Shown: positions 3,545 through 53,602 of the stretch, in pieces
How the letters are laid out: every line of letters begins with the position of its first letter
Numbering within the stretch: the stretch's first letter is position 1
IMG/VR virus record: IMGVR_UViG_3300017655_000275
Length of the DNA: 64,000 nt
Reading direction: 5' to 3' (one strand)
Source of the DNA: a virus
Taxonomy: Duplodnaviria > Heunggongvirae > Uroviricota > Caudoviricetes
Made by a program: the position numbers and the translations under genes
The notes under the pieces: generated by a model
Seen by the model: only the letters and a program-made list of their open reading frames with translations
Told to the model about the DNA's origin: nothing
The model's database searches: none

Positions 3545-4140
3545 CGTGGAAGGGAAAAGAATGTCTCCGGATCACGCTCCTCGACATTGCCGGCATCGAT
3601 CTCGACGCTTTCATCCAGCTGAGATCTGGCAATGGATGCCCGCAGATCCGAAATCTCCTTTCGTGCGGCTGAAAGATCTGCCCTTGCGACGCTCAGGTCC
3701 TTGGTTAGCTCGGCAATCCAGGACATTATGGCCTTGCGTTCACGCATAAGTCGGCCGCGCGTCGTCACCACGAAGTCGGAATCGTCCTTGAGGCTGCCGT
3801 CCGCAGGCATAACGGCGCGAAAGATCCTGGCCTGGACGATCTGTTTCTTGACGAGGTCGGTTACCCGCCAAGACTCTGGCTTTCCATCATGGTCCGTGGC
3901 TTCCCGCGGTCGCGAACCGGGGCCGGGGCGTCTTTCCGGTATGCCTTTCACTTCCATTCCGATGTCCCGGGCGATTCCGAGAACCTCCCCCGGCGTGGAC
4001 CCGAACGTTTCGGCAATAGAGCTCAAGTCGCCGTAATCAATGGTGTTTCGCCGGGCTTTACTGCGTAATTCGCAGGCGGCCAGGTCGGAAAATTGCATTG
4101 GAGCAGTCCTGATTGTCATGTCATCAGACATGAAAAGCAC
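3541..4140 (-). CDS. hypothetical protein, translationally coupled to the GHKL ATPase gene (possible N-terminal HTH, coiled-coil C-terminus)
   Basis: 199 aa. There is a 4-nt ATGA overlap with the downstream gene. The C-terminal half is charge-rich and helical-looking (LSVARADLSAARKEISDLRASIARSQL). Confidence 0.5.
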   Translation of the reverse strand: MLFMSDDMTIRTAPMQFSDLAACELRSKARRNTIDYGDLSSIAETFGSTPGEVLGIARDIGMEVKGIPERRPGPGSRPREATDHDGKPESWRVTDLVKKQIVQARIFRAVMPADGSLKDDSDFVVTTRGRLMRERKAIMSWIAELTKDLSVARADLSAARKEISDLRASIARSQLDESVEIDAGNVEERDPETFFSLPR

Positions 4141-6999: not shown

Positions 7000-7530
7000 T
7001 CAGGCGAAGGAGAGGAAATCCGGAGAGACGTGATCCGTCAGCCAGACACCGTTGTCGGCCCGGTAGAAGATTGCTCCAGCCAATGCCATGCCGGCGCAAT
7101 TAACGGACAGGACGACAGCCTTGCCATGGCGGCCGCCGACACGGGCGGCTGTCTCCATATCTCCGGAGAGGTGCACCATTTGCCGGCGCATTGGCTTCAG
7201 ACCTTCGGCAAAGATCGCATCCAGAACATGTCGGGCCGTGCCGTGCCAGAGGATATCGGGCGGCCTCCCAGGGGACAGCTCCAGGTCGACCTTGATGGAG
7301 TGGCCCTGTGCGGCGCGAATGCGATGGCCATCTTCCGATAAGACGAAACGCCGCTTGTCATTATCCCGGACGATGTCTTCCAGGACTTGCCGCGATATAT
7401 CGAAACCGGCTCGCTTCATCCCGCGGATGAGGTCGTCCACGCGCACCCAGCCGCCGGGACCTGGAACAAGTCCGGCAAGGTCCGGTCGGTGTCGGAGGAT
7501 AAGCGCGAGTTTTTTCGACGTTTTGCTCAT
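7000..7530 (-). CDS. kptA: RNA 2'-phosphotransferase KptA/Tpt1
   Basis: N-terminus MSKTSKKLALILRHRPDLAGL...GWVRVDDL. Catalytic region ILWHGTARHVLDAIFAEGLKPMRRQMVHLS. Confidence 0.8.
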   Translation of the reverse strand: MSKTSKKLALILRHRPDLAGLVPGPGGWVRVDDLIRGMKRAGFDISRQVLEDIVRDNDKRRFVLSEDGHRIRAAQGHSIKVDLELSPGRPPDILWHGTARHVLDAIFAEGLKPMRRQMVHLSGDMETAARVGGRHGKAVVLSVNCAGMALAGAIFYRADNGVWLTDHVSPDFLSFA

Positions 7531-7597
7531 GCGATTATGTTAGCAATACGGATGTGCCGGGACAATATCCTGCACGCAGTTGCGGATTTGGTCGACT

Positions 7598-8149
7598 TCA
7601 GATGACACCGCCCTTGCCTCGTATCCAGCCCTCCGGATTAATATAGGGAACACGCATCTCGATGATTGTTGAGCCCTTCGGATCCCTGCGATTGTCATCC
7701 GGCCCACGACATTCAAGACTGATATATCTTCCAAGGATTGTGGAAAAACCGTTGTAATAATATCCGTTTCGACTGGTCAGTCCCGCTCGCATGCTCTTGC
7801 AGATGCGTGGATCGCTGTCCTTGAACCAGAAATAGACATAGCGGGCTGTGGCTTGGCCAGGCATGGTCTCCTGGCTCATGGAGATCTGACCTCCGAAAGG
7901 GACGATACCCTTCTCGATGGCGCCGAATTTTCCCGCGCGGATCTTGCTCAGGTAGGAACCGGTCTCCAAGGTCATATCGCGATCAAGGCGCTCGAACTCA
8001 CTGACCACGATCTGGATGGCCTTGATGCGGTCGTTCAGATTGACCTGGGCCTTGGCCCGGCCATAGATCGTCAAACCGCTGAAAATCAGTCCCATGGCGA
8101 GGGCTATATAGAGCACCACTTCCATGAGAGTGAAGCCTCTCCGCGGCAT
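7598..8149 (-). CDS. prepilin-type N-terminal cleavage/methylation domain protein (pseudopilin / type IV pilin-like)
   Basis: MPRRGFTLMEVVLYIALAMGLIF matches the G|FTLxE class-III signal and hydrophobic helix. Start set at M23 of the track ORF. Confidence 0.6.
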   Translation of the reverse strand: MPRRGFTLMEVVLYIALAMGLIFSGLTIYGRAKAQVNLNDRIKAIQIVVSEFERLDRDMTLETGSYLSKIRAGKFGAIEKGIVPFGGQISMSQETMPGQATARYVYFWFKDSDPRICKSMRAGLTSRNGYYYNGFSTILGRYISLECRGPDDNRRDPKGSTIIEMRVPYINPEGWIRGKGGVI

Positions 8150-8307
8150 GACTGCCGTGAGAGGATATTGCCTCTGGAAAGAACGTCTCGCATGCCCCAG
8201 ATTCATGGCCATCACTGCAATATTTGCTTCGTATCTTCGCCGGACCTAATCTCGTTTCTGGCAAATCCTAGTGAACGTTGCGAAGAAGTGTGTGGATGCC
8301 GGTTTTC

Positions 8308-8847
8308 CTAGATACTGCCAAGAGTAATTTCTGTTACAGGATCCCGCCCGGTCAGAGCAAAATCCAGTGTTGTCGAGGCGTCGACCTCCAGCCCGGCTTC
8401 ATCGCTGCTGAGATCGTAGATGTCTCGATCCTCTGGATATTCTATCGCTTCGACGATAGTCAGCTTTTCCGGATCGAAGATGCAGATCGCGCCCTCCAGG
8501 TCGCAATCCTCCATCTCGCAGATGATGCCGTCATATCCGAGGCTCATGAGCTCCTTGCGCGCTTTTTCGAAGCGAGGCCAAGCCAACTCTCGATCGGTCG
8601 GATACAGATCGGGCCCGCCCCAGATTGCGGTATGCCGATCGAGAGCCGGAGCGAGTCGCAGGGTCTCTGCTTCGACAATCATGATTGCGCGGCCGCCGCC
8701 ATAGCCGGATGCTGCCTCGGGATCGCGGGTCAGCCAGACACCGAGAACGGAATTCGGCTCCGCTCCCATGCCGATCTGGTAAGGATCGAACTGGTCGAAA
8801 ACGCTCCTCGATCCATGAAAAAGTCGGACACTCACGGCGACCTCCAT
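8308..8847 (-). CDS. hypothetical protein
   Basis: Start moved to MEVAVSV. The track start MIQ coincides with an upstream ATGAGAAAA motif and has no SD. Confidence 0.3.
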   Translation of the reverse strand: MEVAVSVRLFHGSRSVFDQFDPYQIGMGAEPNSVLGVWLTRDPEAASGYGGGRAIMIVEAETLRLAPALDRHTAIWGGPDLYPTDRELAWPRFEKARKELMSLGYDGIICEMEDCDLEGAICIFDPEKLTIVEAIEYPEDRDIYDLSSDEAGLEVDASTTLDFALTGRDPVTEITLGSI

Positions 8848-8963
8848 CCCTGTCTGAAGGGAGATATTTCCACAACCGAAATACCCAATCCTCAAGCGCT
8901 TCTTTCTTCTTTCAGGTGATTCCTGTATCATGAGAAAAAACTAACAGTAGAAGGTGCCGTCCC

Positions 8964-9326
8964 ATGATCCCTTCAAGAGAGACGTCCATTGCCCTCGACA
9001 GATCCTGGACACAGCTGGAGTCTCGTGATCCGGAAGGTCTCGACCCGGATGTGACCGTGCACCGCGGGTCCTGTGGAAACATGAAGATCGTCGAATTCCG
9101 CACAGGCAGACACTGCCTGGTCGAGATCAGGAAAGACACGCTCTCGGAATTGCTTCAGGTTACCCCGGGCCACGGCTTGGGAAAAACCGAACTGAAGCGG
9201 GCCAGCCGTATCGTTTCACTCTGCGCATCGATGGGAGCAGGGAGCGCTCCTGCTATGAGCCGTGTCGGTCGGTTCCGTGACGAGCCCTTCAGTATCGGCA
9301 TTCCGACACCCTGTGGTGCGATCTGA
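8964..9326 (+). CDS. hypothetical protein (first gene of the plus-strand operon)
   Basis: 120-aa ORF. ATGAGAAAA motif 35 nt upstream. Confidence 0.45.
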   Translation: MIPSRETSIALDRSWTQLESRDPEGLDPDVTVHRGSCGNMKIVEFRTGRHCLVEIRKDTLSELLQVTPGHGLGKTELKRASRIVSLCASMGAGSAPAMSRVGRFRDEPFSIGIPTPCGAI

Positions 9327-9328
9327 CC

Positions 9329-10045
9329 ATGGTGGGAAAAATTACACCAAGCGCGCAAGAACGCATCCTGGCGATAAGGATGACCCTCGCCCAGATCAGG
9401 GACGCCAGGACACGCGGTTCCAGGTTTTATGCTATGGGCGAGAAAATGCTAGATAGAGCCGGCATGAATGCGTTCTGTGCCGATGCGACACATCGCCTGA
9501 TCCAATTGAAATCAGGACCCGTTACCCGGAAAATCCTGACAAACGCTTTGAGTTGGCACAATTTGATCGTCTTGAAGGGGATCATCGACAGAACCGAAAA
9601 ATCGGGACTGAGCTCCATCGCAGGGTTTGGCAGTGATATCCTGAAGGAATACGGCATTGAGGCCGGCCCGGGAGCCGCCGGCACCCAGGCCGGGCGGAAC
9701 CGGATCCTGCGCAGGATGATGCGGAAGCACTTCCAGGCGGCCTTCGAGGACCTTCCGCCTCTTGTCGCGTGTGACAAGAGGGAGGCGGCTAGCAGGCAAA
9801 GATCTGCGGAAAAGACATTCAGGATCCTGATCCGTGACATCCACGCGGGGGCGGTGGTCCTGCCGAAGGGCACGGTTCTCGAGGCCAGTAGCTCCGGAAT
9901 GTTCCGACCTTTCGACAAGAACGGTCCTGTCGTCGACGTCCATCCCTGTCACACCCGGACAGCACGCAAGCGCGACAAGAAGAAGATCCATCTGGTCCTC
10001 GCTGAGAACGGCGCGGAATTGCCTGACGATCCATCGCTATTCTGA
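9329..10045 (+). CDS. hypothetical protein
   Basis: Starts 3 nt after the upstream stop (translational coupling). 238 aa, no recognised motif. Confidence 0.45.
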   Translation: MVGKITPSAQERILAIRMTLAQIRDARTRGSRFYAMGEKMLDRAGMNAFCADATHRLIQLKSGPVTRKILTNALSWHNLIVLKGIIDRTEKSGLSSIAGFGSDILKEYGIEAGPGAAGTQAGRNRILRRMMRKHFQAAFEDLPPLVACDKREAASRQRSAEKTFRILIRDIHAGAVVLPKGTVLEASSSGMFRPFDKNGPVVDVHPCHTRTARKRDKKKIHLVLAENGAELPDDPSLF

Positions 10046-10054
10046 GGAAAAGCC

Positions 10055-11152
10055 ATGTCATTCAATTACACTCCCGGCATCGACATCGCTCAATCCGACG
10101 CCCGCTACCTGGTCAATACCGTCAACTGCAAGGGCGCTATGGGCGCGGGAGTCGCCTTGGCCATCAAGAAGCGGTTTCCGGAGATCGAGGGGCGCTACAA
10201 GGAGGCCTGCACGGCCGGAAAGCTCCTGCCTGGCGGGTTGATGGTCTCCCCGACGAAGGACGGTCGGGCCATTCTCAATATCGCCACCAAGGATCATTAT
10301 TGGACCGAGGACCGGAAGTCCGCACCCTCGCGATATGAATGGGCCGGCTATGCGCTCCTGAACCTGAATCGCTGGCTCGTCGGGATGGCGCCTGAAAAGG
10401 GCAGGGTGGCCATGCCGCTTCCGGGTGGCGGACATGGTCAGCTGGATCAGGCGCGCATAGCACGGATGTGCAGGACATATCTGGCTCCGGCACTGGAAGC
10501 CGGTTTCGATATCGATCTCATCTCGCCGGAGTTTCCGCTTGCCGAGGATCCTGTCTTCTATGCCGGGGTCGGATCGCGTGATACTCCGACAGGCGACATC
10601 GCCGATCTCATGCGGGAAATGGCGGGAATGGCGGCCGAAGACGGCTGGCTACTCAGGTCCGGAGGCGCGACAGGTGCCGATACTTTCTTTCATGAAGGTG
10701 CGCTTGCGGCCGGAGTGAAATCGGAGATCTTCCGTCACAACCGGAAATTCAATGGTCCCGAGCAGGTCTTCGAAACCAGGGATGTCCATTACCGGCTCGC
10801 GATTTCCGTCCACCCCGCGGCGACCAGGCTGAGTGAATGGGCCCTTGGGCAACATGCCAGGAACGGCTGCCAGGTTTTCGGTCCGGACTTCACCGTGCCG
10901 TCCAGCATCGTGATCTGCTGGACGAAGGACGGCGGCTATAATGGTGGAACAGCTCAGGCCATGCGGTATGCGGATCTGGCTGGGATTCCCATACTCAACC
11001 TCGGGAAGCCGGAGCTGCAGGGGATTTCCGCCACGGATGCGATGAGCCTGGCACGAAATATGATTGCGGATCGGCATTCCCGCATCGGCCAGAAATTCAA
11101 CACGGCACGTGAGGTGGATACTGCCCCGCAGGCCGGATCCTTCGGAATCTGA
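10055..11152 (+). CDS. Macro domain fused to a DprA-like (SLOG) Rossmann domain
   Basis: N-terminus: YLVNTVNCKGAMGAGVALAIKKRFPE (macro glycine-rich ADP-ribose-binding loop). C-terminus: YAGVGSRDTPTGD...LLRSGGATGADTFFHEGALAAG (DprA GSR and SGxAxGxD signatures). GAGGAA SD. Confidence 0.65.
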   Translation: MSFNYTPGIDIAQSDARYLVNTVNCKGAMGAGVALAIKKRFPEIEGRYKEACTAGKLLPGGLMVSPTKDGRAILNIATKDHYWTEDRKSAPSRYEWAGYALLNLNRWLVGMAPEKGRVAMPLPGGGHGQLDQARIARMCRTYLAPALEAGFDIDLISPEFPLAEDPVFYAGVGSRDTPTGDIADLMREMAGMAAEDGWLLRSGGATGADTFFHEGALAAGVKSEIFRHNRKFNGPEQVFETRDVHYRLAISVHPAATRLSEWALGQHARNGCQVFGPDFTVPSSIVICWTKDGGYNGGTAQAMRYADLAGIPILNLGKPELQGISATDAMSLARNMIADRHSRIGQKFNTAREVDTAPQAGSFGI

Positions 11153-11161
11153 GGAAGCGAT

Positions 11162-11770
11162 ATGCGCATCGACGTCTGGCATGGCACAAATCAGAATTTC
11201 GACAGCTTCGATCGGCAGATGTTGGGCCTGAACACGAATAATACCACATCAAGGCAGGCTTTCTTCTTCTCCGGAAGGCCTGATACGGCATGGGAATACG
11301 CGACTTTCGCCGCCAGGAACCTGGTGCCGGACCAGGTTGCCCACGAAAGGCAGGTCGCGGAGCTCATCGAAAGGGCCGCCGCGGCCGAGCGCCGGCGGGA
11401 TTTTGATCTTTACGAGGAACTGACAGCCGCCGCAGAGGAACTGGAATTCACCGCGATCCACTCACCAGCGAGCGGTGAAACACTTTTGTCATGCAGGCTG
11501 GAGATCCGGAACGCGCTGGAGGTCGAGGCGTCGGATCCCCGGATGACGTCCGGTTTCGGTGATATCCTTCAGGAAGCCAAGGCTGCTGGACATGATTGTG
11601 TGATCGTCCGGAACATGAGCGATACTCCGAGCGGTGCTTGCCAGCCGGACGATCACTATGCGCTCTTTAACACGGATCTGATCGCCATTCTTGATCGATA
11701 CCACTCGCTGGAACAGGCGCTTGCGGAGACCGGGACCGAACTGGCTTCCCCAGACTTATTCTCATTCTGA
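11162..11770 (+). CDS. ADP-ribosyltransferase-fold protein (HGT motif; Tpt1/PARP/DT-like), lacks a Tpt1 N-terminal winged-helix domain
   Basis: RIDVWHGTNQNFDSFD at residues 2-17 resembles YHGT(K/A) of DT/Tpt1 (compare kptA LWHGTARHVLDAI). Lies 10 nt downstream of the macro gene. Confidence 0.4.
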   Translation: MRIDVWHGTNQNFDSFDRQMLGLNTNNTTSRQAFFFSGRPDTAWEYATFAARNLVPDQVAHERQVAELIERAAAAERRRDFDLYEELTAAAEELEFTAIHSPASGETLLSCRLEIRNALEVEASDPRMTSGFGDILQEAKAAGHDCVIVRNMSDTPSGACQPDDHYALFNTDLIAILDRYHSLEQALAETGTELASPDLFSF

Positions 11771-11827
11771 CTTGAAGTCGGAACAGCTATCTGCCATTAT
11801 CATCGCAATGTGAAAATGGAGATGGGC

Positions 11828-12520
11828 ATGCCTGTCGAGACCGATCCCTATCTTGCAAGCCGCCCTGCGACGACGGTCGATATCGTCCTGGTGACGATGG
11901 CCGAAGGCAAGCTTCACGTGCTCGTCCATAAGCGCGCAGCAGATCCCTTCAAGGACAGCTACGCGCTTCCGGGAGGTTATATCCACATCCAGACGGATGA
12001 CAGTGCCGAGAGTGCGGCCTGGCGGATCCTTTCAGAGAAGGCAGGCCTCCCGGCCTATCACCTCGAACAGCTTGCGACCTATTCGGGACCGGATCGTGAT
12101 CCCCGGGGCTGGTCGATCTCCGTGACCTTTCTTGCCTTGGTTCCGAGGGGGGAACTCCCGGAACTCGACGGTGATGTGGTGACTCTGATTCCTGTCGATG
12201 AGATCTCGGAATGGAACCTTGCATTCGACCATGAGATGATCATCGAAGACGCGCGGATCCGCATGAAGGGAAAGTCGACATATTCGACGCTTCCTGCAGC
12301 CCTTCTGAATGAGCCTTTCACCCTTCGGGAATTGCATGCGGCTTACGAGGCCATGTCAGGCGAAACCTTCAACCGGAGCAACTTCGGACGAAAGATACTG
12401 ACTCTCGGCGTCCTCGAGGAAACCGGCGAGAGGCGGCAGGAAGGGATCAGCAGGCCGGCCCTGCTTTACAGGTTGTCCGGCGGTATCCGGGCATTCGATC
12501 GAAACCTCGGGAATTCGTGA
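11828..12520 (+). CDS. NUDIX hydrolase with a C-terminal NrtR-like winged-helix domain (ADP-ribose pyrophosphatase / NAD regulator family)
   Basis: Nudix box region ALPGGYIHIQTDDSAESAAWRILSEKAGL. The C-terminal about 90 aa are wHTH-like. The track start at 11810 is GTG. An ATG at 11828 has a GGAG SD 6 nt upstream. Confidence 0.55.
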   Translation: MPVETDPYLASRPATTVDIVLVTMAEGKLHVLVHKRAADPFKDSYALPGGYIHIQTDDSAESAAWRILSEKAGLPAYHLEQLATYSGPDRDPRGWSISVTFLALVPRGELPELDGDVVTLIPVDEISEWNLAFDHEMIIEDARIRMKGKSTYSTLPAALLNEPFTLRELHAAYEAMSGETFNRSNFGRKILTLGVLEETGERRQEGISRPALLYRLSGGIRAFDRNLGNS

Positions 12521-13962: not shown

Positions 13963-14160
13963 TCACGCGCTTGCAGTATGTTCTGGCCTGGTCGAATCCG
14001 GCATCAGGAAGCCCGCCCGTCGCGCTTCTTCCAGCATCCTGCCTTGCAAGGCGCGGAATTCGACATTGTGCTGATACATTGTCAGCATATTGATCAGGGC
14101 GATCCAGTCGTTGCGGCTGACGGTCGGTTGAAACAGCGGCGACAATGAACTTTCCGACAT
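13963..14160 (-). CDS. hypothetical small protein
   Basis: 65-aa ORF between the plus operon and the restriction-modification gene. No clear SD. Confidence 0.2.
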   Translation of the reverse strand: MSESSLSPLFQPTVSRNDWIALINMLTMYQHNVEFRALQGRMLEEARRAGFLMPDSTRPEHTASA

Positions 14161-14214
14161 GATGGCAACCCATATCGTTAACAGAAGACCTTAAACGTGT
14201 AGATACTCTCGGTC

Positions 14215-17097
14215 CTATCGAGTCAATCTCTCATTTTTAAGATGCGAAAATCTTTGCTGATTGAGGTTGAACAACCTGGCAAGGATTTCATTGTCGACCA
14301 GAATTCCCTTTCTCCAGTCTTCACCCCAACCATAAGCTTCCGCCACCGCTCCATCCAGCTTCTTGTGGGCATGATCGAGCCAGGAAGGGCGTGCATTGTA
14401 GAGGTTCGTGAGGGTGCGTTTCTTCAGCTCCTTCTCGGCCAATTCATTCACGGGCAAGATGCGATCGGGATATCCCGGGACGACTTCCGGCACGCGACGA
14501 ACCAGATCAGGCGGGTTGAGCCATGTCTCGCGCAATTCGTTCAGACTGGCGGCGGCAGCGGCGATCGCCTGCGCCCGGGGGTCAGAAGCATAATCCTTGG
14601 CGGGAATGTCGGGGGTCAGGCCTTCTGGGAAAGGGAAGGTTTCGAAACCAAGGGACGGCGTGTATTGCGGGTCGTTGCCAACCCCATGCCATCCACCAAG
14701 AGCCAGCGACCACAACTCATGGAAGCATGAGTGAAGAATCCCGAATGAGGTATCGTCCTCTCTGGCGATGAGGACGACGCGGCTATCAGGAAGGGTGCGC
14801 GCATCAGACCATGCAAACAAGCGATGCTTAGCTACTCGCGGGGTGAAGATTGCCCTTCGGAGCGGTGCGACAGCCTCACGCAACTCACTGCCAGACCGGC
14901 CAAGGCGCCACCAGAACTGTTTTCTTTGAAGGTCCCTGTTTTCATCTCTCAAAGGTTTTACATGCGCGCGGACATATTCAAAAGGAGCTTCGAAAAGGCA
15001 AGCTTCTTCCTCGGTCATGGCCCCGAAATCAACAATCCACCTGCCTGAAGACCTGCGGGTAATGTCCATGCCGTTCAGAAGCGGGCGGACGACTTCTGCA
15101 TTCCGTCTTCCGTTCGGGTTTCCTGAGCGCGTCAGCCATTCACGGGCAAGATCTCCCGTTACATCGAATGGACCCACCTTGACTGGCCCCTGGAAGGCAA
15201 TGCCGAGATTTTCCACGATCTGGGAGGCTTTTGTCAGATCGTTGCCTCCACGAGCCGCCGACAAATCCGCAAAAATCTCCTGCACCTCAGAACCATCCAA
15301 GTGGACAGGCCCGCCTGGCTGGCCATCGAAGCATATCATCGAAACACGGACAGCTGCGCCGTCCACCGTCCATGGCTCGTCCGACCAGGCTTCAAAAATA
15401 CGTCCATGTTCTACAACCGGATTCAGTATATCACGATTGGCACCGCCGCGGATCGAATTGGTCGAGACCAAGCCGGCGCGGGACAGACGGCCTGCTTCGA
15501 TCATGTCCCATGCCTTGGCGAACCAGTAGCAGACGAAATCAACGCCTCCCGGCACATGGCTCCACACCCGGCGCAGCTTGGTGGTGTAGTCCTCGCCAAG
15601 CTCCGAGATCATCTTCTTATTGCCTATGAAGGGCGGATTTCCGATGACAGCATCGACGTCTGGCCATTCGGCACGGGTTCCATCCTCAGAGAGAACAGCA
15701 TCTCTGTTCTCGATATTGGATAGCGGACGAAGGATAGGGTTGCGGCCAGCCTCGAACCCATTTCGGCGCATCCACTGAATTTCTCCGATCCAGACCGAAA
15801 CTCTCGCCAGCTCGGCCGCATAGGGGTTCTTCTCGATCCCGAACACGTTTTCCGGACCGATCCTCGGAAACTCTCTCGGCAATCCCATGGCCTCGGCGTC
15901 GAGATTGACCCGGTGCTCGAGATCCTTGAGTGCGAGAAGCGCCAGGTAGAGGAAATTCCCTGATCCACATGCGGGATCGAGGACCTTGTAGTTCCTCAGG
16001 CGTTCCAGGAAGACGTTCTTCAATGCCTCCGCCTGCTTCATGGCCTTCGTTCTCGAAGAGGATGACCTCGCCGCTGCCGCCTTGCTCAAGGCGGAAGAGA
16101 TCTGTTCGCGGGCATCTTCCCATTCCGCGAGGAGCGGGTCGACGATGACGGGCTGGACGATCTGCATGATCTTGTCGCGGTCGGTATAATGGGCGCCCAG
16201 TTGGCTGCGTTTTTCCGGATCTAGGCCCCTTTCGAAAAGCGTGCCCATGATCGATGGATCGATTTCCGACCAATCAAGACGTGCGGCTGCAAGGAGTTCG
16301 GTCACATCCTGCGCTTCGAGGGGCAGTGCCTCTCCATGATCGAACAATCCGCCATTGAACCATTCGACCTGTTCGAACCCGACCATGCCACCGCCATGCA
16401 TGGCGGTGAAGAGCAGGGTTGCATTGGGTTGAAATCTGGATGGATCACGCTGCGAGGTTTCGATCATGCGCTGGAACATCCGGTCCGGCAGCAGATTCAC
16501 GTCCTCGGCAAACAGACAGAATATGAGCCGGTTCACGAAGTGGGCCACTTCGTGCGCCTCATGTCCACGCTTGCGCAGGTTCATGGCAAGAGCAGCGAAG
16601 CGGCCGGCCGCTTCCTCTGTTAGTCCCTGTCTCGTCCTGGTGGGGCGGAGCTTTTCGGGGTCGAGAAATGCCGACTTCAGCAAGTCTCTCATACCCGCAT
16701 CTGCGAGTTCCTCGAGCGAGATTTCATGGACCTGCTGGACCGTATTGGTCCAGTTGGTGTGGATCTGGATCCTGTCCATGTCGGATACGATCAGGAGCGG
16801 AGGATTCTCCAGGGCGATTGCATATTGCTGAAGTTGTGAGAACGCGGCCCTGAGGTCCTTTCTCTTGCCCTTGTATTCCCAGGCGAAGCATTCCTTTCGC
16901 CAGACATCGGCCCACCCTTCACCACCAGTGGTCTTGCTGGCCCCTTTCTCGAAGGTGAACCACTCGCCCTTCGGATCCGCCGAAACCGGATCCTCGATGT
17001 CGAGAAGCTTGCAGAGATCGATGAAGTGGGCCTGCGACGCGCTCCGCTCCTTGAGCTCGACATTGCGCCATTTTGAGATGAAAGCATGCGGGGTCAT
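14215..17097 (-). CDS. Type IIL/IIG restriction-modification enzyme, MmeI family (N-terminal PD-(D/E)xK nuclease plus gamma-class N6-adenine MTase plus TRD)
   Basis: N-terminus HAFISKWRNVELKERSASQAHFIDLC and the D...EYK motif (ADVWRKECFAWEYKGKRKDL) resemble MmeI. MTase motif I VLDPACGSGNFL and motif IV NPPF. GGAG SD before M15. Confidence 0.8.
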   Translation of the reverse strand: MTPHAFISKWRNVELKERSASQAHFIDLCKLLDIEDPVSADPKGEWFTFEKGASKTTGGEGWADVWRKECFAWEYKGKRKDLRAAFSQLQQYAIALENPPLLIVSDMDRIQIHTNWTNTVQQVHEISLEELADAGMRDLLKSAFLDPEKLRPTRTRQGLTEEAAGRFAALAMNLRKRGHEAHEVAHFVNRLIFCLFAEDVNLLPDRMFQRMIETSQRDPSRFQPNATLLFTAMHGGGMVGFEQVEWFNGGLFDHGEALPLEAQDVTELLAAARLDWSEIDPSIMGTLFERGLDPEKRSQLGAHYTDRDKIMQIVQPVIVDPLLAEWEDAREQISSALSKAAAARSSSSRTKAMKQAEALKNVFLERLRNYKVLDPACGSGNFLYLALLALKDLEHRVNLDAEAMGLPREFPRIGPENVFGIEKNPYAAELARVSVWIGEIQWMRRNGFEAGRNPILRPLSNIENRDAVLSEDGTRAEWPDVDAVIGNPPFIGNKKMISELGEDYTTKLRRVWSHVPGGVDFVCYWFAKAWDMIEAGRLSRAGLVSTNSIRGGANRDILNPVVEHGRIFEAWSDEPWTVDGAAVRVSMICFDGQPGGPVHLDGSEVQEIFADLSAARGGNDLTKASQIVENLGIAFQGPVKVGPFDVTGDLAREWLTRSGNPNGRRNAEVVRPLLNGMDITRRSSGRWIVDFGAMTEEEACLFEAPFEYVRAHVKPLRDENRDLQRKQFWWRLGRSGSELREAVAPLRRAIFTPRVAKHRLFAWSDARTLPDSRVVLIAREDDTSFGILHSCFHELWSLALGGWHGVGNDPQYTPSLGFETFPFPEGLTPDIPAKDYASDPRAQAIAAAAASLNELRETWLNPPDLVRRVPEVVPGYPDRILPVNELAEKELKKRTLTNLYNARPSWLDHAHKKLDGAVAEAYGWGEDWRKGILVDNEILARLFNLNQQRFSHLKNERLTR

Positions 17098-17157
17098 CAG
17101 GATCTCCGGTTTGGGAGATCCTGAACATTTTCCCGTCAACCCGTCAATGGGCCTGAA

Positions 17158-17400
17158 CTAACCCGGGCTCCAGGTATGTTCCGCTTCCGGATCGTCGACC
17201 CGCTCAACCAGATCCCCAGGCTCGATCGTGCCGTCTTCGTAGCTCCAGCTTCTTCCGGACCAATCGGCAACATACCATTTCGTGCCGTCGCCCGGAACCG
17301 TGCGATCGAGCTTGACCAGATCGCCGAGATGGTCCCGGAAGACCATGTCCGGGCGCAATTCATGGCGCCGATCATACCAATCTTCGCGATTTTCGGTCAT
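17158..17400 (-). CDS. hypothetical small protein
   Basis: Start at internal MTENRED with an AGGAG SD 8 nt upstream. The upstream part of the track ORF is Gly/Arg-rich junk. Confidence 0.35.
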   Translation of the reverse strand: MTENREDWYDRRHELRPDMVFRDHLGDLVKLDRTVPGDGTKWYVADWSGRSWSYEDGTIEPGDLVERVDDPEAEHTWSPG

Positions 17401-17414
17401 CGCCATCACTCCTC

Positions 17415-18959
17415 TCAGGATCCCAATCCAACTACGGCATCCGCGTCCGGAGCCGCGTAGCGTTCCGGCCAGACCCACCCGGCCTCGTCGACTTTCGATG
17501 GATCCACCGAAAGTTCCTTTGTCGAGATCAGGAACATGTCCTCGCTCCATGGAGGGGTGACGAGATCAGGACTTCCGAAGTGCTTGAAGAACCTGGTCGA
17601 GCCATGGCCGGTGGCCATGTAGACGTTCAATTCCGAACCTGGCTCGGTTTCAATGACCGCGACAGAATTATTCTTCGCATATTCATCGAGAAGCGTGCCG
17701 GCTTCCTCACGCGTAGTTGGAGCCCCCTGGACCGGCTCGTCACGATCTCCTATCCCGCCGTTTTCAGCGATGCGCTGCCCGCCGGCTACCAGGATGTCGA
17801 TCAGGATTTCCCGGTCGGCGAAGGTGACATCCCATAGGTCGCAGCAAACCTGGCCGATGACGTCAGGCCATGCGCCATCCTTCTTGCTGTAGTCGGAAGG
17901 ATCGTCCGGGTTGATGTCCCAGAGATCTTCATGATCCTCGTCGATCCAGCCGATCCGGTAGACGATGCCATCGCGTGTGACCTGCGGCACGCAATTGGTC
18001 GTATGGATCCGCATCAGACCCAGGCGCTCATAATGATCCTGCGTGCGCTCATCTACGCCTTTGTCAGCATTGATGCTTGTGCGGCTGTATTCGTCCTGGT
18101 CGTTGATACCTTCATTGAAGCCGGGGATGCGGAACCAGTCGGCCATGTATATCCGCCCGGAAGGTGCGCTGATCTTCAGATGCCTCAGTGGCTTTGGCGC
18201 ATCCCAGGGACCGAGCTCCTCGAACCGGGTCGTCTCGCCGGTCATGCGGTTCCCGTAATGCATGATGCCGGCCACCGGCTCAAGAAGGCTGTCGCTCTTC
18301 CAGGTAAGCCTCTGGTCGGTTTTGGGGCAACGCATTTCAGATGACATGCTGAAGAAACGTTTCGCACCTGATCCCATCAGAACGGCGCGTTCCGCTGCAG
18401 CTGCGGCGGCCTGGCTGACATGCTCAGGGCCAACCGGCATCAATGCCTTTGCGCCGGTTCGCCCGGACTTGTCATGGGCGGAATGTGGATCCAGGCCCGC
18501 ATCGGTCCTCAATTGCCGAATGCAATCGTAAGCGCCCTCGAAGATTCCCTGGCTGATGGCCTGCGGCAATGGACAGTGGAAAAGTGTGCTCCAACCATAT
18601 TTTGGGGCGTCAGCCGGACCCTTTTCGACGAAACGGTTCCACTCGACAGCTTCGCGAACCCCCCGCTCGGCTCCAAATGGAACAGGCCTCATCTTTCCCT
18701 GGTCGCGCAACTCCCCGAGAATTTGAAGCACCGCAAGTTGCAGAGCATCATGGTGAAAGATGTGCGGCAGAGAATGTTGGAGCGCTTCATCCGTCCCCAT
18801 TTCCTCTGCGCTTGGAAGCGGGGAGTTAAAGCTCTTTTTCACACCGCGAGAGTATCCATCCATGGTCGAAGAAATCCATCCATGGACAATCTCGGCGTTG
18901 ATATGCTTGCGGATGATCTCAGGATCGAATTCCAGTTTTCCGGTCTTCTTACTGCCCAT
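17415..18959 (-). CDS. hypothetical protein (514 aa), part of the minus-strand array ending in the restriction-modification gene
   Basis: Long ORF with strong coding periodicity. No recognised motif. Confidence 0.5.
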   Translation of the reverse strand: MGSKKTGKLEFDPEIIRKHINAEIVHGWISSTMDGYSRGVKKSFNSPLPSAEEMGTDEALQHSLPHIFHHDALQLAVLQILGELRDQGKMRPVPFGAERGVREAVEWNRFVEKGPADAPKYGWSTLFHCPLPQAISQGIFEGAYDCIRQLRTDAGLDPHSAHDKSGRTGAKALMPVGPEHVSQAAAAAAERAVLMGSGAKRFFSMSSEMRCPKTDQRLTWKSDSLLEPVAGIMHYGNRMTGETTRFEELGPWDAPKPLRHLKISAPSGRIYMADWFRIPGFNEGINDQDEYSRTSINADKGVDERTQDHYERLGLMRIHTTNCVPQVTRDGIVYRIGWIDEDHEDLWDINPDDPSDYSKKDGAWPDVIGQVCCDLWDVTFADREILIDILVAGGQRIAENGGIGDRDEPVQGAPTTREEAGTLLDEYAKNNSVAVIETEPGSELNVYMATGHGSTRFFKHFGSPDLVTPPWSEDMFLISTKELSVDPSKVDEAGWVWPERYAAPDADAVVGLGS

Positions 18960-18962
18960 TAT

Positions 18963-19625
18963 TCACATCCCCGGTTCTGCAGAGTCGGTATCGTTTTCAG
19001 CCTGATATTCCTCCACGTAATCCGTATCGGCGAGATAGACCTTGCCCTGGACAGGCGCATTCAGCCGCATCGCGGCGCTGCAATCCATGTTGCCAAGAGA
19101 CACTTTGAGTTCGCCTGACTCGGTCTCCACATAGACCTGACGCCCATCATCGAACAGGATCTCGATGGCTGCCGGGTATGTTCTGACGGCATATTTCAGG
19201 TTGCGAGGCGTCTCCTCACCTGGCTCGAGACCAAGTTCGAAAATTCGGAAATCTGACAGGGCAGAATACTGCCGGTTGCAGCCGGCATCGAGTTCTCGAG
19301 CGATCTTCCTGACATCGGTCAAATAATCGATCTCATCGTTGAAGAGTGCCCGATCCGCCGGATCGTGATTGTGACGTTCCACGGCATAGGCAAGATTAAG
19401 AAGAATGGGCGCGACGAGACGGGCAGCGACATGAAGCTGACCCCAGCCGGCATAGCGTTGCGCCGCCCGGAGCGTCTGCAGCATTTCCGACCTGACGCAA
19501 TCGGGAAAACCGTCGCTCGCCAAGGAAGGTTTTTCTGCCGTGCGGGTAAAGAGGCCCTCCCAGACAGGTAGGGCCTCTTTCAGTCTCTGCAGGCGGTCAT
19601 GAATTTGGGCATCCCGTTTCGACAT
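18963..19625 (-). CDS. hypothetical protein
   Basis: 220 aa. 3-nt gap to the downstream gene. Confidence 0.45.
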   Translation of the reverse strand: MSKRDAQIHDRLQRLKEALPVWEGLFTRTAEKPSLASDGFPDCVRSEMLQTLRAAQRYAGWGQLHVAARLVAPILLNLAYAVERHNHDPADRALFNDEIDYLTDVRKIARELDAGCNRQYSALSDFRIFELGLEPGEETPRNLKYAVRTYPAAIEILFDDGRQVYVETESGELKVSLGNMDCSAAMRLNAPVQGKVYLADTDYVEEYQAENDTDSAEPGM

Positions 19626-19635
19626 GTCATCGCCC

Positions 19636-20022
19636 TCACATTGACATCACGGTTTCCGTCTCGGGCTCATATCCCGAAAGACGTTCAACCTCCGCGGACA
19701 GACGATCCAGGGCACGAAGTTCATGCTTCCAATAGCCGGTATCATCCACATCGCCGGCCGGGTCCCAGTTGCCCGTCTGCTCTGCTTCCGAGATCTTCGC
19801 CTCGAGCGCTTCCCGGATCTGGGGAAAGCAAACGGAAGCCTCGCGTGCGTGCGGCAGCCTGCTTTCGACACTCCGATCGGTCGACCGGGAGGAGTAGAGG
19901 ATGTCGACAGCATTCACCATGTCATCACGGTCAGGGTTCGACCTGCGGAAATCGTTCAGCGCGTCAATCCAGGGCCGGTAATGGGTGACAACGTCATCCA
20001 GGGCATCCAGGTTGGGGTTCAT
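19636..20022 (-). CDS. hypothetical acidic protein
   Basis: Start MNPNLD with a GGAAGGAAAAAAGG SD. TTGCGAAAAG motif 29 nt upstream. Confidence 0.45.
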   Translation of the reverse strand: MNPNLDALDDVVTHYRPWIDALNDFRRSNPDRDDMVNAVDILYSSRSTDRSVESRLPHAREASVCFPQIREALEAKISEAEQTGNWDPAGDVDDTGYWKHELRALDRLSAEVERLSGYEPETETVMSM

Positions 20023-20111
20023 CCTTTTTTCCTTCCGGATCATCTTTTCGCAAAGGGGCAACATCACAAGAATAGGAGCGATCGTGCGAAAAAGACAACC
20101 GAAAGAGGCGA

Positions 20112-20468
20112 TCAGTCAGAGGATTTCCCCTCGACATGGAGATCCGCTTCAGACCGGACTTTTCCAGGATCCATGAACCAACGGGCGCCAAGCATCTGCT
20201 GCAGCGGATCATCACGCTCTGCCGTTGCAACGGGCAGTTCCCTGATGCGGGAAAGTGCATCCTTGAAAAATGCGGTCAGGCGATCACCTCCGGACCTGAC
20301 GCGGTTACGCGACAGGCTGGCCAGGTAGGCGAGCTGGCGCAGGTCTTGTTCATCATGGACCTCGGATGCCAAGATCTCACCTCGTGCCATCCTGCCGATC
20401 GCGATCAGCATGAAGCGCTCGCGTTCGCGGGCGCCGAGTCCTTCAAGGCTTGCAACCAGTGTCGTCAT
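20112..20468 (-). CDS. hypothetical protein downstream of, and overlapping, the DUF1814 NTase gene
   Basis: ATG (MTTLVAS) with a GAGGAA SD. Overlaps the NTase 3' end by 26 nt. The track start at 20492 is TTG. Confidence 0.35.
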   Translation of the reverse strand: MTTLVASLEGLGARERERFMLIAIGRMARGEILASEVHDEQDLRQLAYLASLSRNRVRSGGDRLTAFFKDALSRIRELPVATAERDDPLQQMLGARWFMDPGKVRSEADLHVEGKSSD

Positions 20469-21012
20469 TCCGACATTCCTCGAGAATCTCAATAGCCAGC
20501 TTTATGCTTGTGCGAATATATTCCTCGTTTCCAATGTAGTAATCAAGTGCTTCCTCAGCCCGCACCCTGACTTCCTCCGGATCGATGGGCATATGCGATG
20601 CGATCAGACGGATGTCATCCCGATCTCGCTCGATAAAACGTCCGATCTTTGATACGATCAGGTCAACCGGAGAGATTACCTTAATCGTCAGCTGCGGAAG
20701 GTCCGCAACCACTGTAGCATCGTCCTTCCAGTCCGGATGAAAGAGGCCAATGGAATCGGAAAATCCGGCATCTACAGACACCTTGACCGGGTCGCCATCC
20801 GCATCCTCCGTCATGAAGCTCTGCTGATCCATGGAAAGCAGGACACGATGAGACCATTCGATGTCCATGTCATCTGACATGCGAGCATCGGTGTAGAAGT
20901 TGACAGCTGTGCCCCCGGCCAGGTGAGCTACCACTTTTCCCCTTTTGGGATTGAAGCCCGTCGAAATGCTGGCCAGGTGCTGAAGCAGATCCTGCATCAA
21001 CCTTGTATTCAT
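20443..21012 (-). CDS. AbiEii/AbiGii-type (DUF1814) nucleotidyltransferase-fold protein
   Basis: VAHLAGGTAVNFYTDARMSDDMDIEW matches the hG[GS]...[DE]h[DE]h minimal NTase motif. This resembles the AbiEii toxin family. GGAGG SD before MNTRLMQ. Confidence 0.6.
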   Translation of the reverse strand: MNTRLMQDLLQHLASISTGFNPKRGKVVAHLAGGTAVNFYTDARMSDDMDIEWSHRVLLSMDQQSFMTEDADGDPVKVSVDAGFSDSIGLFHPDWKDDATVVADLPQLTIKVISPVDLIVSKIGRFIERDRDDIRLIASHMPIDPEEVRVRAEEALDYYIGNEEYIRTSIKLAIEILEECRNDDTGCKP

Positions 21013-21037
21013 GTTCATCCTCCATCGAAGAGTATTC

Positions 21038-21499
21038 CTATGGGGCAGGCTCTCGCGCCGCTTCCAAATCTTTCCGGGCCTCAAGAATAATCTTTTCAAA
21101 CTCGGATATCCACGTTTTCACCCTGGGCATACAGCTCTTCAGGGACTTCCTGTGCTCGCGGTTCATCCAGAAGAGATCGTCGTGCCGGTAAGGATCGGAC
21201 ATACCCTGAACATCGAGAGCATCCTCATTGAGATCCAGAATATCTCCGCCAGGCAATACCACGAACTGGTGGTCCCAGTTACCGCGGATCTTGCCGCCGA
21301 AGACCTCCCTGGCGAAGAGGGAGGTGAATTTGCAGGAACTTGACAGGTCTTGCGGTGGCGCCATGAGCCTTTCCGTGGCGCGTTCGCGCCACTTCGCAAG
21401 GACGAACTGCTTCGCGAATTCGACGTTCTCGGCTGTGGCGGCTATCGGCAAAATGCTCATGGCCGGATCATGATAATGAGTTGAGAAAAAGCAATTCAT
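21038..21499 (-). CDS. hypothetical protein upstream of the DUF1814 NTase (possible cognate partner; no obvious HTH)
   Basis: Start chosen at MNCFF (AAAGG SD). The 3' end overlaps the NTase start region. Confidence 0.35.
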   Translation of the reverse strand: MNCFFSTHYHDPAMSILPIAATAENVEFAKQFVLAKWRERATERLMAPPQDLSSSCKFTSLFAREVFGGKIRGNWDHQFVVLPGGDILDLNEDALDVQGMSDPYRHDDLFWMNREHRKSLKSCMPRVKTWISEFEKIILEARKDLEAAREPAP

Positions 21500-25458: not shown

Positions 25459-26253
25459 CTACCGCCTGCAGGATCGCCGAACAGAATTTCGGAGATTGCT
25501 GCCCTCGCTACCGGCCAGGTTCTTCAGGTTGATCGCGGCATTGATGTCGCGGTCATGATCGGCGCCGCATGTGGCGCAGGTCCAGGAACGGACCGAGAGT
25601 GGAAGCTGATCCACCTTGCTGTGACAGCCGGAACAGGTCTTGCTCGAGGGAAAGAACCTGTCGGCGACCATCAGTCGCCCGCCGGCCCGCTCGAGCTTGT
25701 AGCCGAGCTGACGGCGGAATTCGTAAAAGCCCATATCGGCGATCGCCCGGGCAAGACGGCCATTGCCCATCATGCCCCGGACATTGAGATCCTCGATCGC
25801 CACGCTGCCAAAGCGGCGCGACAGCATCGTCGTCAGCTTGTGCAGGCTGTCCTGGCGGATATTGCGGATCCGGGCATGGAGCTTCGCGATCCGCGCCCGG
25901 GACCGGGCCCGGTTCTTGCCGCCCTTCATCTTGCGGGCGTGCGATCTCTGCAGTTTCGCAAGCTTCCTGAGATGCGAGCGCAGCGCCTTCGGACCCGCGA
26001 TCTTCTCGCCAGTGCTCAGGGTCGCCAGATCGGTGATCCCGAGATCGACGCCGACCGCCGGCCGGTGATTGTGCAGGGGCTGCTCATGGTCGATCTCGGC
26101 CATGACCGCGGCAAACCAGCGACCGCCCTCCTTCGAAATCACCACCGATTTCAGATCGGGGTTGAGATCCGGGCTGAAGCGATAGGCCTCGTGCATCCTG
26201 ACCCAACCGATCCGCGGCAGCTTCAGGCGCCGTCTACTACGTCTTCCATATAT
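25459..26253 (-). pseudogene. tnpB: IS605-family tnpB remnant (N-terminally truncated by about 110 aa; RuvC-I/II/III and zinc finger retained)
   Basis: KLPRIGWV, GVDLGI (RuvC-I) and CSGCHSKVD...CATCGADHDRDINAAINL (zinc finger / RuvC-III) are present. The reading frame is closed by a stop at 26254-26256. No tnpA nearby. Confidence 0.7.
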
Positions 26254-52489: not shown

Positions 52490-52621
52490 TGTATTGGAGA
52501 ATCCGTATCGATGAGAGCGGGTCGTTGATCTGTAATCAGGATCACGCAATGATTTCAGCGCTGGTCAGGCGAAAACCTGCGTGATAATCTGCATGAGAAA
52601 ATGCCTCAAGAGGAAAGCACC

Positions 52622-53602
52622 ATGGGTCTCATTTCTGCCATCGTCTGGCTGATCGTCGGTCTGATCGCCCTGAGCCTCGCGCTCTCGATGATCGTCATCA
52701 CCCCGCAGCGCCACGTGAAGGTTCTCGAAACCTTCGGTAAGTATTCCGGCTATCGCAAGGCGGGCCTGAGCTTCAAGGCGCCCTGGCCGATCCAGGCCGT
52801 GTCCGCCGTGAAATCGCTGCAGACCATGGAGATCTCGCAGGAGGTTTCCGTGATGTCGGCAGACAACGCCTCGGTCATCCTGCCGATCCGGATCCAGATG
52901 ACAGTCGATGAATCGGATGTGGAAGCGGCAACCTACAAGCTCGACAATCCCGCGCAGCAGATCAAATCATATGTGACCAACCAGGTCAGGGCCACTGCCG
53001 GGCGGATGAAGATGATCGACCTGTTCAAGGCGCGTGATGCCTTCAAGGACGATATCGAGCAGGAGCTCAGCGCGAAGATGGCCGAATGCGGCTATCGGAT
53101 CATCGACGTACTGGTCGACGATCCGCAGCCTTCGGCCGAACTCCGGGCGGCATTCGAACGTGTCCTGGCCTCGGAGCGGCTGAAAGAGGCGGCAATCAAC
53201 GAGGCCGAGGCAAACAAGACCATGCTGGTGGCAACCGCAAAGGCCGAAGCAGAAAGCGTGCGTGAAAAAGGGAAGGGCCTGGCCGATTTCCGCAACACCA
53301 TCGCAGAAGGGCAATCTGCCGCCATGAAGAAATTCATGGATGGGACCGACCTGACGCATAAGGATGCCCTTTCGTTCATGCTGGCCGTCAACGAGATGGA
53401 AGCGCTGACGACTGTCGGCCAGTCGGGCGGCAAGGTGATCTTCGTGACGGGTTCTGCCGGCGGGCGGGACAACAGCCCGGCGATGTTTCCGCTTCTGGCG
53501 GCAAACCTGGAGCCTGGCAGTGCAGCGCCGAAATCCGCGGCAAAGCCACCGCGCAAACCATCGGCTGTGAAGGCCGAGAAGGTGATCGAAGCAGAAGCTT
53601 GA
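52622..53602 (+). CDS. SPFH/Band-7 (stomatin/prohibitin-like) membrane protein
   Basis: N-terminal TM helix, then SPFH-like region. AGAGGAAAG SD. ATGAGAAAA motif 29 nt upstream. Confidence 0.65.
   Translation: MGLISAIVWLIVGLIALSLALSMIVITPQRHVKVLETFGKYSGYRKAGLSFKAPWPIQAVSAVKSLQTMEISQEVSVMSADNASVILPIRIQMTVDESDVEAATYKLDNPAQQIKSYVTNQVRATAGRMKMIDLFKARDAFKDDIEQELSAKMAECGYRIIDVLVDDPQPSAELRAAFERVLASERLKEAAINEAEANKTMLVATAKAEAESVREKGKGLADFRNTIAEGQSAAMKKFMDGTDLTHKDALSFMLAVNEMEALTTVGQSGGKVIFVTGSAGGRDNSPAMFPLLAANLEPGSAAPKSAAKPPRKPSAVKAEKVIEAEA

Follow-up and report, generated by a model that had tools for sequence, protein, structure and literature searches.

A DUF6036-family nucleotidyltransferase paired with a small helical protein in a probably mosaic gene array of a plasmid-like element

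We analyzed an array of eight minus-strand genes between positions 14,215 and 21,499 of a 64,000-nucleotide (nt) stretch of DNA, the IMG/VR virus record IMGVR_UViG_3300017655_000275 (hereafter the window), which an earlier note, made from the sequence alone, had likened to a composite defense island. We think it fairly probable that the array is a mosaic, in which two conflict modules, each self-contained, stand among five orphan genes, and not one co-evolved system. One module is a restriction-modification (RM) enzyme; the other consists of two overlapping genes for a nucleotidyltransferase (NTase, g7) and a small helical protein (g6), and the pairing of these two is established by comparative genomics. 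We lean modestly toward reading the pair as a toxin–antitoxin (TA) system, by analogy with characterized relatives of the NTase. The remaining genes, encoding proteins of 153, 128, 220, 514 and 80 amino acids (aa), are independent cargo. The genes are as follows.

21038–21499, minus strand: g8, 153 aa, the first gene of the minus-strand block
20443–21012, minus strand: g7, 189-aa DUF6036-family nucleotidyltransferase, putative toxin
20112–20468, minus strand: g6, 118-aa all-helical protein, putative antitoxin
19636–20022, minus strand: g5, 128-aa orphan
18963–19625, minus strand: g4, 220-aa orphan, 3 nt upstream of g3
17415–18959, minus strand: g3, 514-aa protein of an uncharacterized family
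17158–17400, minus strand: g2, 80-aa orphan between g3 and the RM gene
14215–17097, minus strand: g1, 960-aa MmeI-family Type IIL/IIG RM enzyme
13963–14160, minus strand: 65-aa open reading frame (ORF), called as a ninth gene of this strand block, 54 nt past the RM stop

The coordinates come from a mechanical ORF listing and from gene calls on identical contigs (ENA ERZ27256357 k141_42445 and several Logan runs), and both sources confirm the eight minus-strand genes that the note had listed. The 65-aa ORF, which the note had not listed, is among the gene calls of L004 and L005, two of the identical contigs.

The nucleotidyltransferase and its partners

The census of NTase partners was based on a scan of one genome per species with an 11-sequence NTase alignment, which gave 28 loci, and on look-ups of exact proteins, which added more; the partners were identified by phmmer and profile searches of the ORFs flanking the NTase. 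Besides the window, 14 loci have a g6-type gene adjoining that of the NTase. The g6 homolog lies directly downstream in seven alphaproteobacterial metagenome-assembled genomes (L013–L019), in a planctomycetotal locus (L038), in L041, in L042/43, where the pair adjoins a plasmid-type RepC, and in L044 and L056, and in a Paracoccaceae locus (L020) the order is inverted, with the g6 homolog directly upstream. The overlap between the two genes, 26 nt in the window, is conserved at 23–35 nt across the loci. In L041, L042 and L044 the pair, NTase first, is bracketed by opposite-strand genes on both sides and is therefore a self-contained bicistron.

The note had proposed both small flanking genes as overlapping partners of the NTase. 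The g6 gene does overlap it, but g8 sits 25 nt away, and only the downstream g6 is conserved with the NTase. When the array and flank proteins were searched against all NTase loci with tblastn, only g7 and g6 were found, and homologs of g8, g5, g4 and g2 were absent. As a candidate partner g8 was rejected: it has no homolog in the NTase loci, and in L041, L042 and L044 the NTase is preceded by a gene of the opposite strand. Homologs of g8 with 37–47% identity occur on megaplasmids of Methylorubrum, Bosea and Pseudomonas; no NTase adjoins them in the two annotated contexts (Bosea and Pseudomonas FeN3W), which hold hypothetical genes, and the Methylorubrum stretch is unannotated. On this comparative evidence, g8 lies outside the NTase module, and the real partner of the NTase is the downstream overlapping g6 only. 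The claim that an NTase with non-canonical partners is the unusual part of the array thus holds for the g6 pairing, which is new, but not for g8.

The g7 protein matches the Pfam family DUF6036 with 30.0 bits (cut-off 23.6) and AbiEii/DUF1814 with 29.3 bits (cut-off 22.5), the latter a partial match limited to residues 100–165 of the scanned 218-aa ORF translation and to model positions 95–167 of 238. Homologs of g7 on plasmids carry the RefSeq name "DUF6036 family nucleotidyltransferase". Its description as an AbiEii-type NTase needs a small correction: g7 belongs to the AbiEii/MenT superfamily and keeps the catalytic residues, but DUF6036 fits slightly better. By these profile scores g7 is a DUF6036 member within the superfamily, and membership in AbiE or MenAT proper is not demonstrable. 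Neither gene flanking g7 matches any helix-turn-helix (HTH) or AbiEi model, so the AbiEi-type winged-HTH antitoxin partner is indeed missing, as the note had said. A scan for the NTase in viral contigs gave no match.

The active site of g7 is intact. In a 23-sequence alignment, R44, D48, D50, D81, K122, D130 and D133 are invariant, G33/G34 are retained in at least 90% of the sequences, and position 46 is Ser or Thr in all 23 and Ser in all 11 closer homologs; the catalytic set [ST]xDxD...D...K...D...D is thus conserved. The note had named loss of the NTase's catalytic residues as one finding that would refute it; the residues are all kept in g7, and this objection falls away. A profile search turned up a single solved relative, MenT1 (8an4; E=0.0027). 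In the profile alignment to this structure, S46, D48, K122 and D133 of g7 align with T39, D41, K137 and D152 of MenT1, the four residues changed to alanine in the MenT1 study (PMC10435456).

The partner g6 is a 118-aa protein with six predicted helices. It has no match in Pfam, NCBIfam, PADLOC, PHROGs or the PDB sequences, and its family is, judged by every library queried, previously undescribed. Nine close homologs share the motifs DLRQLAYLAxLSRNRV, DPL and DxGKxRxE. A fold search with g6 gave no HTH and no HEPN match. The possibility that g6 is a HEPN protein was also rejected on its sequence, as the Rx4-6H motif is not conserved and the candidate His is replaced by F, Y or C in homologs. 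A metagenome scan with the g6 alignment returned one short locus only.

A sister clade of NTases has a different partner. In 17 loci (L021–L030, L032, L033, L035–L037, L040 and a Variovorax plasmid), from chromosomes of Beta- and Gammaproteobacteria and plasmids such as that of Variovorax, the NTase is orthologous to g7 (31–42% identity), has identical catalytic residues and takes part in the same abutting or overlapping two-gene layout, but its partner is unrelated to g6 and is placed upstream. This partner, about 165 aa long, has an N-terminal Cro/C1-HTH-like segment and a conserved C-terminal domain; at the Variovorax locus the C-terminal domain stands alone. The HTH is putative, its match to Pfam HTH_26 (E=0.021) being under the cut-off. 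A relationship between g6 and the C-terminal domain of the HTH-type partner was considered and rejected (hhalign probability 0.2%). The two partner types never co-occur, and a neighbor-joining tree splits the NTases into two clean clades by partner type. The lack of similarity between the partners, their mutual exclusion and the two clades together mark a two-gene module that co-evolves and has undergone a single replacement of its partner.

Readings of the pair

MenT/AbiEii-type NTase toxins block translation via modification of tRNA ends and are controlled by diverse antitoxins. By analogy, g7 would arrest growth through nucleotide addition at tRNA 3' ends, and g6 would be a protein antitoxin neutralizing g7 by direct binding. 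This binding would occlude the active site of g7 or trigger auto-phosphorylation of the conserved S46, and on a plasmid-like element the pair would serve as an addiction and/or abortive-infection module. Both modes of neutralization have precedents. Active-site occlusion was first described for MenA1, which is small and helical and does not bind DNA, and the MenA antitoxins are diverse (PMC10435456). Antitoxin-induced auto-phosphorylation occurs in MenT1 and MenT3 at a Ser/Thr two residues before the first catalytic Asp (PMC11375011), a residue that corresponds to S46 of g7. Auto-phosphorylation of AbiEii is reported in a 2026 preprint (doi 10.64898/2026.01.19.700257).

The fate of individual copies is consistent with these roles. 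In L051 and L052 the NTase is reduced to residues 89–186 and has lost its catalytic half, and it is followed by an intact g6-like gene and then a Fic gene. In L050 and L057 a solitary g6-like gene is present beside a Fic protein, and the two Fic proteins are 83% identical. Both a lost catalytic half beside an intact g6 and solitary g6 genes are what a toxic NTase with g6 as its antidote would lead one to expect. Fic proteins adjoin g6-like genes that lack a full NTase at L050 593–2721, L057 913–2671 and L051 2394–4738, which may point to a link between g6 and Fic.

Compared with characterized systems, the pair resembles several and coincides with none. It shares with MenAT1 (8AN4/8AN5) a small NTase of about 190 aa, an equal active-site layout, and a small helical partner without a DNA-binding domain. 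However, g7 falls in DUF6036 and MenT1 in DUF1814, the g6 gene is downstream and overlapping whereas the MenA1 gene is upstream, and g6 (118 aa, six predicted helices) has no detected homology to MenA1 (68 aa, two helices). With AbiE the pair has in common the partial AbiEii match above the Pfam cut-off and the two-gene layout on mobile DNA, but it lacks the COG5340/AbiEi winged-HTH antitoxin, its gene order is reversed, and g7, at about 190 aa, is shorter than a typical AbiEii (Pfam model, 238 positions). As in MntA/HepT, the NTase gene leads and an overlapping second gene encodes a small all-helical protein; however, g6 has neither the HEPN Rx4-6H motif nor a HEPN fold match, and g7 belongs to the AbiEii/MenT-like branch and not to the minimal MNT proteins.

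Several observations weigh against the TA reading or against the roles assigned in it. The similarity of g7 to MenT1 is weak, no paper on DUF6036 or PF19502 turned up in the literature library searched and the family has no characterized member, and the toxin-first order is atypical for AbiE and MenAT systems. The g6-like genes that occur without a full NTase, some of them beside Fic proteins as in L050 and L057, also belong here. Furthermore, in L053–L055 a g6-like gene shares 1 nt at its start with the gene of a 91-aa protein that looks ribbon-helix-helix (RHH)-like by eye; in such a layout of an RHH gene followed by a small gene, the downstream gene is usually the toxin. This RHH–g6 arrangement is the main observation pointing against the NTase as toxin and g6 as antidote. 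The RHH-like/g6-like pair (L053 1712–2322, and also L054 and L055) is located beside an integrase and other TA pairs, with the NTase absent.

It is rather unlikely, in our estimate, that the pair is instead a two-subunit, non-toxic nucleotidyltransferase acting on a small molecule, an antibiotic, an RNA or a protein, with a role that may include counter-defense. DUF6036 is entirely uncharacterized, the element abounds in enzymes of nucleotide, NAD and RNA-repair type, as polyvalent-protein cargo typically does, and chromosomal copies adjoin ordinary metabolic genes, all of which would suit such an enzyme. However, the pair bears the hallmarks of TA systems, namely two genes with overlapping frames that are scattered patchily, as mobile genes are, over unrelated contexts. 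Its partner has been swapped for an unrelated putative-HTH protein in the sister clade, the one decayed copy is truncated only in the putative toxin, and other TA genes (RES, PIN/HicB, MNT/HEPN) lie near the pair in several loci.

A reversal of the roles, with g6 as the toxin and the NTase as a type VII modifying antitoxin, as MntA nucleotidylylates HepT, seems very unlikely to us, although the order of the two genes is that of MNT–HEPN operons and the position of the g6-like gene downstream of the RHH-like protein in L053–L055 is the usual antitoxin–toxin layout. The missing HEPN motif in g6 speaks against it, and the nearest characterized relatives of the NTase, AbiEii and MenT1, are toxins. 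The sister-clade NTase, moreover, pairs with an upstream putative-HTH protein, a typical antitoxin architecture. Finally, an intact g6 beside an NTase without its catalytic half (L051) and solitary g6-like genes would both be unlikely for an unguarded toxin.

The RM enzyme, the 514-aa protein and the array as a whole

The second conflict module, g1, follows the domain order of MmeI: an N-terminal PD-ExK nuclease, a helical spacer, a gamma-class N6-adenine methyltransferase, a target recognition domain (TRD) and a C-terminal domain, all on a single polypeptide. It matches the five corresponding MmeI Pfam domains in order, with MmeI_N, MmeI_hel and MmeI_Mtase above their cut-offs and MmeI_TRD and MmeI_C below, and additionally matches Eco57I and N6_Mtase; its best PADLOC model is REase_MTase_IIG PDLC03627 (1054.6 bits). 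In a phmmer alignment to the MmeI structure 5hr4 (E=9.4e-45), D64/E74/K76 of g1 fall on D70/E80/K82 of MmeI, and motif I (DPACGSGNFL) and motif IV (NPPF) are aligned as well. Morgan et al. rely on D70/E80/K82, together with full-length similarity, to tell active MmeI-family enzymes apart from YeeA-like relatives that lack the nuclease (PMC2731913). The sequence similarity to MmeI itself is strong only over residues 9–563, and the sub-threshold TRD and C-terminal scores are as expected from a recognition specificity differing from that of MmeI.

As in MmeI, there is no second methyltransferase gene: Pfam, PADLOC and further library scans found no other methyltransferase-like ORF within 13.9–21.5 kb. 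By family membership (PMC2731913), g1 would recognize an asymmetric site and methylate one adenine on one strand for self-protection, and its nuclease would cut unmodified incoming DNA at a fixed distance, which in the family is about 20/18 nt from the site. We also considered that g1 might belong to a DISARM or BREX system. The DrmMI, PglX and MADS models match only parts of g1 with far lower scores (the DrmMI models cover only its C-terminal half), and none of its seven neighbors matches any PADLOC model, including those for the DISARM helicase DrmA and for DrmB (DUF1998), in a scan that did not take in the nearby 584-aa SNF2 gene; the partial low matches and the lack of PADLOC neighbors therefore leave DISARM or BREX unsupported.

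Homologs of g1 are found in 260 plasmid records, 80 of which cover at least 80% of the protein. The top one (66.6% identity) is from the Rhodobacterales genus Roseinatronobacter, and several, at 99% of the length, are annotated "type IIL restriction-modification enzyme MmeI". Both annotated plasmid contexts inspected, the two closest, show the gene on its own amid conjugation genes, an LPD7 polyvalent protein and classical TA pairs, with no homolog of g2–g8 nearby. We conclude from these alignments that g1 is an intact, ordinary member of a known family. Its identification as a single-polypeptide MmeI-family Type IIL enzyme was thus correct, and the motifs quoted for the array (VLDPACGSGNFL, NPPF and GGTAVNFYTDARMSDDMDIEW) were all found.

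In the 514-aa protein g3, a helical N-terminal part precedes a conserved, beta-rich core of about residues 170–470. Its structure model is confident (pLDDT 92) and has no fold match in the PDB. The remote-homology search that the note had called for revealed a large uncharacterized family: 33 close homologs, the named ones from Defluviimonas, Paracoccus, Leisingera and Epibacterium, and, in a profile search of 1.84 billion representatives, at least 468 clusters at E<=1e-3. Family members are about 400, about 500 or 650–700 aa long and have a common core at profile positions of about 170–470; ten diverse members contained no Pfam domains. Many Asp, His, Glu and Cys residues are invariant and gather in the core, where D299, D303, D308, H309, E311, H319, C372, C373 and D374 form a conserved cluster; this suggests that g3 may be an enzyme.

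The link of g3 to phages comes from two sources only. Distant family members match phrog_33592, whose function is not annotated, and a Foldseek search of BFVD with g3 retrieved three uncharacterized phage proteins (E 5e-9 to 2e-7, TM-scores only 0.28–0.48). Direct searches for g3 in sequenced phages or IMG/VR gave no match. On its sequence and predicted fold, g3 is probably an enzyme with an undescribed fold that is common to megaplasmids and phages.

The neighbors of g3 homologs differ in every context (Defluviimonas L008, Leisingera L009 and the metagenomic L011/12), and tblastn with the other array and flank proteins found only g3 at these loci, with g4 absent there. The contexts are nevertheless of a like general kind, with genes for HD+AAA_33, an RNA-ligase/phosphoesterase fusion, NUDIX, R2K ATP-grasp, SbcCD and MNT/HepT. 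In L008 (7078–7960) we also observed a divergent 190-aa NTase with its catalytic residues present, overlapping a 108-aa downstream gene that is not detectably g6-like.

The absence of recognizable domains in the 514-aa and 220-aa proteins, noted before, was borne out by family-library searches; like g6, the proteins g2, g3, g4, g5 and g8 have no match in Pfam, NCBIfam, PADLOC or PHROG. Homologs of g2 with 53–57% identity lie within blocks of hypothetical genes on Acetobacter megaplasmids, where no RM gene adjoins them. For g4, searches of family libraries, PDB sequences, plasmids and viral contigs all came back without a match. Library searches gave no meaningful match for g5, which is absent from every fetched locus.

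The spacing of the array was described as 3–60 nt. From g8 to g1 the gaps are 25, −26, 89, 10, 3, 14 and 60 nt, so the real range reaches 89 nt and includes one 26-nt overlap; the 89-nt gap between g6 and g5 shrinks to 44 nt only with an upstream GTG start. Each of the eight genes has an ATG start behind a purine-rich, Shine-Dalgarno-like run, and GC content, overall and at third codon positions (GC3), is uniform over the eight. The note had taken the tight co-directional spacing as a sign of a composite island. However, the element is composed of alternating same-strand blocks of 9, 9, 5, 1 and 4 genes, and equally tight blocks of 4–9 genes are usual in it; tight co-directionality is therefore the background state and no mark of a special unit. 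Scans of the array for consensus promoters and terminators found no excess over shuffled sequence, no convincing flanking repeats or insertion scars were seen around the RM gene, and megablast of the 8-kb stretch against plasmids found no near-identical DNA. The sole Rfam match, to the eukaryotic snoRNA SNORD56 in the spacer after the RM gene (14154–14221, plus strand; 36.9 bits against a gathering threshold of 36), is almost certainly a spurious chance hit.

Three points speak against the mosaic. The array has no convincing internal terminators, so that co-transcription of the eight genes is possible; only 3–4 contexts were sampled per orphan gene; and the very divergent DUF6036-like NTase of L008 (Defluviimonas salinarum) lies 2.4 kb upstream of a g3 homolog, and therefore a loose NTase–g3 association is possible. 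The first and last of these, the tight spacing, the defense association of both RM and Abi/TA-type genes and the conflict-type genes in the flanks (Macro, ART, NUDIX, SNF2) could suit one co-functioning composite defense system, an operon of eight or nine genes for multi-layer immunity, but this is the least probable reading, with scarcely any credit left to it: homologs of g1, g2, g3 and g8 and the NTase/g6 pairs occur in differing neighborhoods without any other array gene, PADLOC recognizes g1 only, and equally tight blocks run across the element. Conservation of the whole array as a unit was likewise rejected, as tblastn finds only g3 at g3-homolog loci and only g7 and g6 at NTase loci. 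We retain the mosaic of two modules and five orphans. The array is thus less unusual than first proposed, and its RM enzyme is routine.

The element and what the pair may teach

The window carries much other cargo: a Macro+DprA-like fusion, two ART-PolyVal proteins, NUDIX-NrtR, a KptA/Tpt1-like protein, DUF6283, an SNF2 helicase, RlaP, an LPD5+LPD1 protein, a PAPS reductase and a short TnpB. Such cargo is typical of polyvalent-protein-type mobile elements. The features that we located around the array are listed below.

1736–4140, minus strand: 602-aa GHKL-type ATPase (HATPase_c_3) and an overlapping upstream 199-aa ORF
7000–7530, minus strand: KptA/Tpt1-like PTS_2-RNA gene
8308–8835, minus strand: faint ART-PolyVal
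10055–11152, plus strand: Macro plus DprA-like fusion
11162–11770, plus strand: ART-PolyVal
11810–12520, plus strand: NUDIX with NrtR winged helix
22646–24741, plus strand: 116-aa phrog_5928 protein (E=6.7e-28) that overlaps a 584-aa SNF2-family helicase at its start; both belong to the divergent block beside g8
25459–26196, minus strand: TnpB-like ORF, 245 aa, with OrfB_IS605 and Cas12f1-like TNB domains
39064–40809, minus strand; 52601–53602, plus strand; 57328–58269, minus strand: LPD5+LPD1 protein and two SPFH/Band 7 proteins

The NAD/ADP-ribose-themed block to the left of the array (7000–12520) could be a counter-defense or NAD-conflict cluster, and the GHKL ATPase with its 199-aa neighbor may be a separate defense-type gene pair. 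The TnpB-like ORF is much shorter than a typical TnpB and may be truncated or miniature. The LPD5/LPD1 and SPFH/Band 7 proteins fit the cargo of a large conjugative or plasmid-like element.

No phage hallmark gene was found in the window, nor did g3, g4 or the NTase match anything when phage records and viral contigs were searched directly; replication or transfer genes were not identified within the window either. The longest contig with these proteins is 229.7 kb, and the nearest relatives of several genes are on alphaproteobacterial plasmids and megaplasmids. The most economical reading is that the element is a large plasmid-like mobile element of a Rhodobacterales-type alphaproteobacterial host known only from metagenomes.

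Taking all parts together, we would propose, tentatively as a whole, that the NTase and g6 form an undescribed toxin-first branch of the MenT/AbiEii systems in which a helical protein, also occurring alone or with RHH-like or Fic neighbors, replaces the HTH antitoxin, and that g3 is an enzyme of a fold absent from the PDB with a role in nucleic-acid conflict. The g3 family, with its confident model, its lack of a PDB match, its at least 468 clusters and its phage relatives, reasonably invites structural and functional study. The NTase/g6 pair would offer the first functional handle on the uncharacterized DUF6036 family. An antitoxin swapped for an unrelated helical protein and moved downstream would amount to a natural experiment on how neutralization is re-invented, with binding and induced auto-phosphorylation of the conserved Ser as the two candidate routes.

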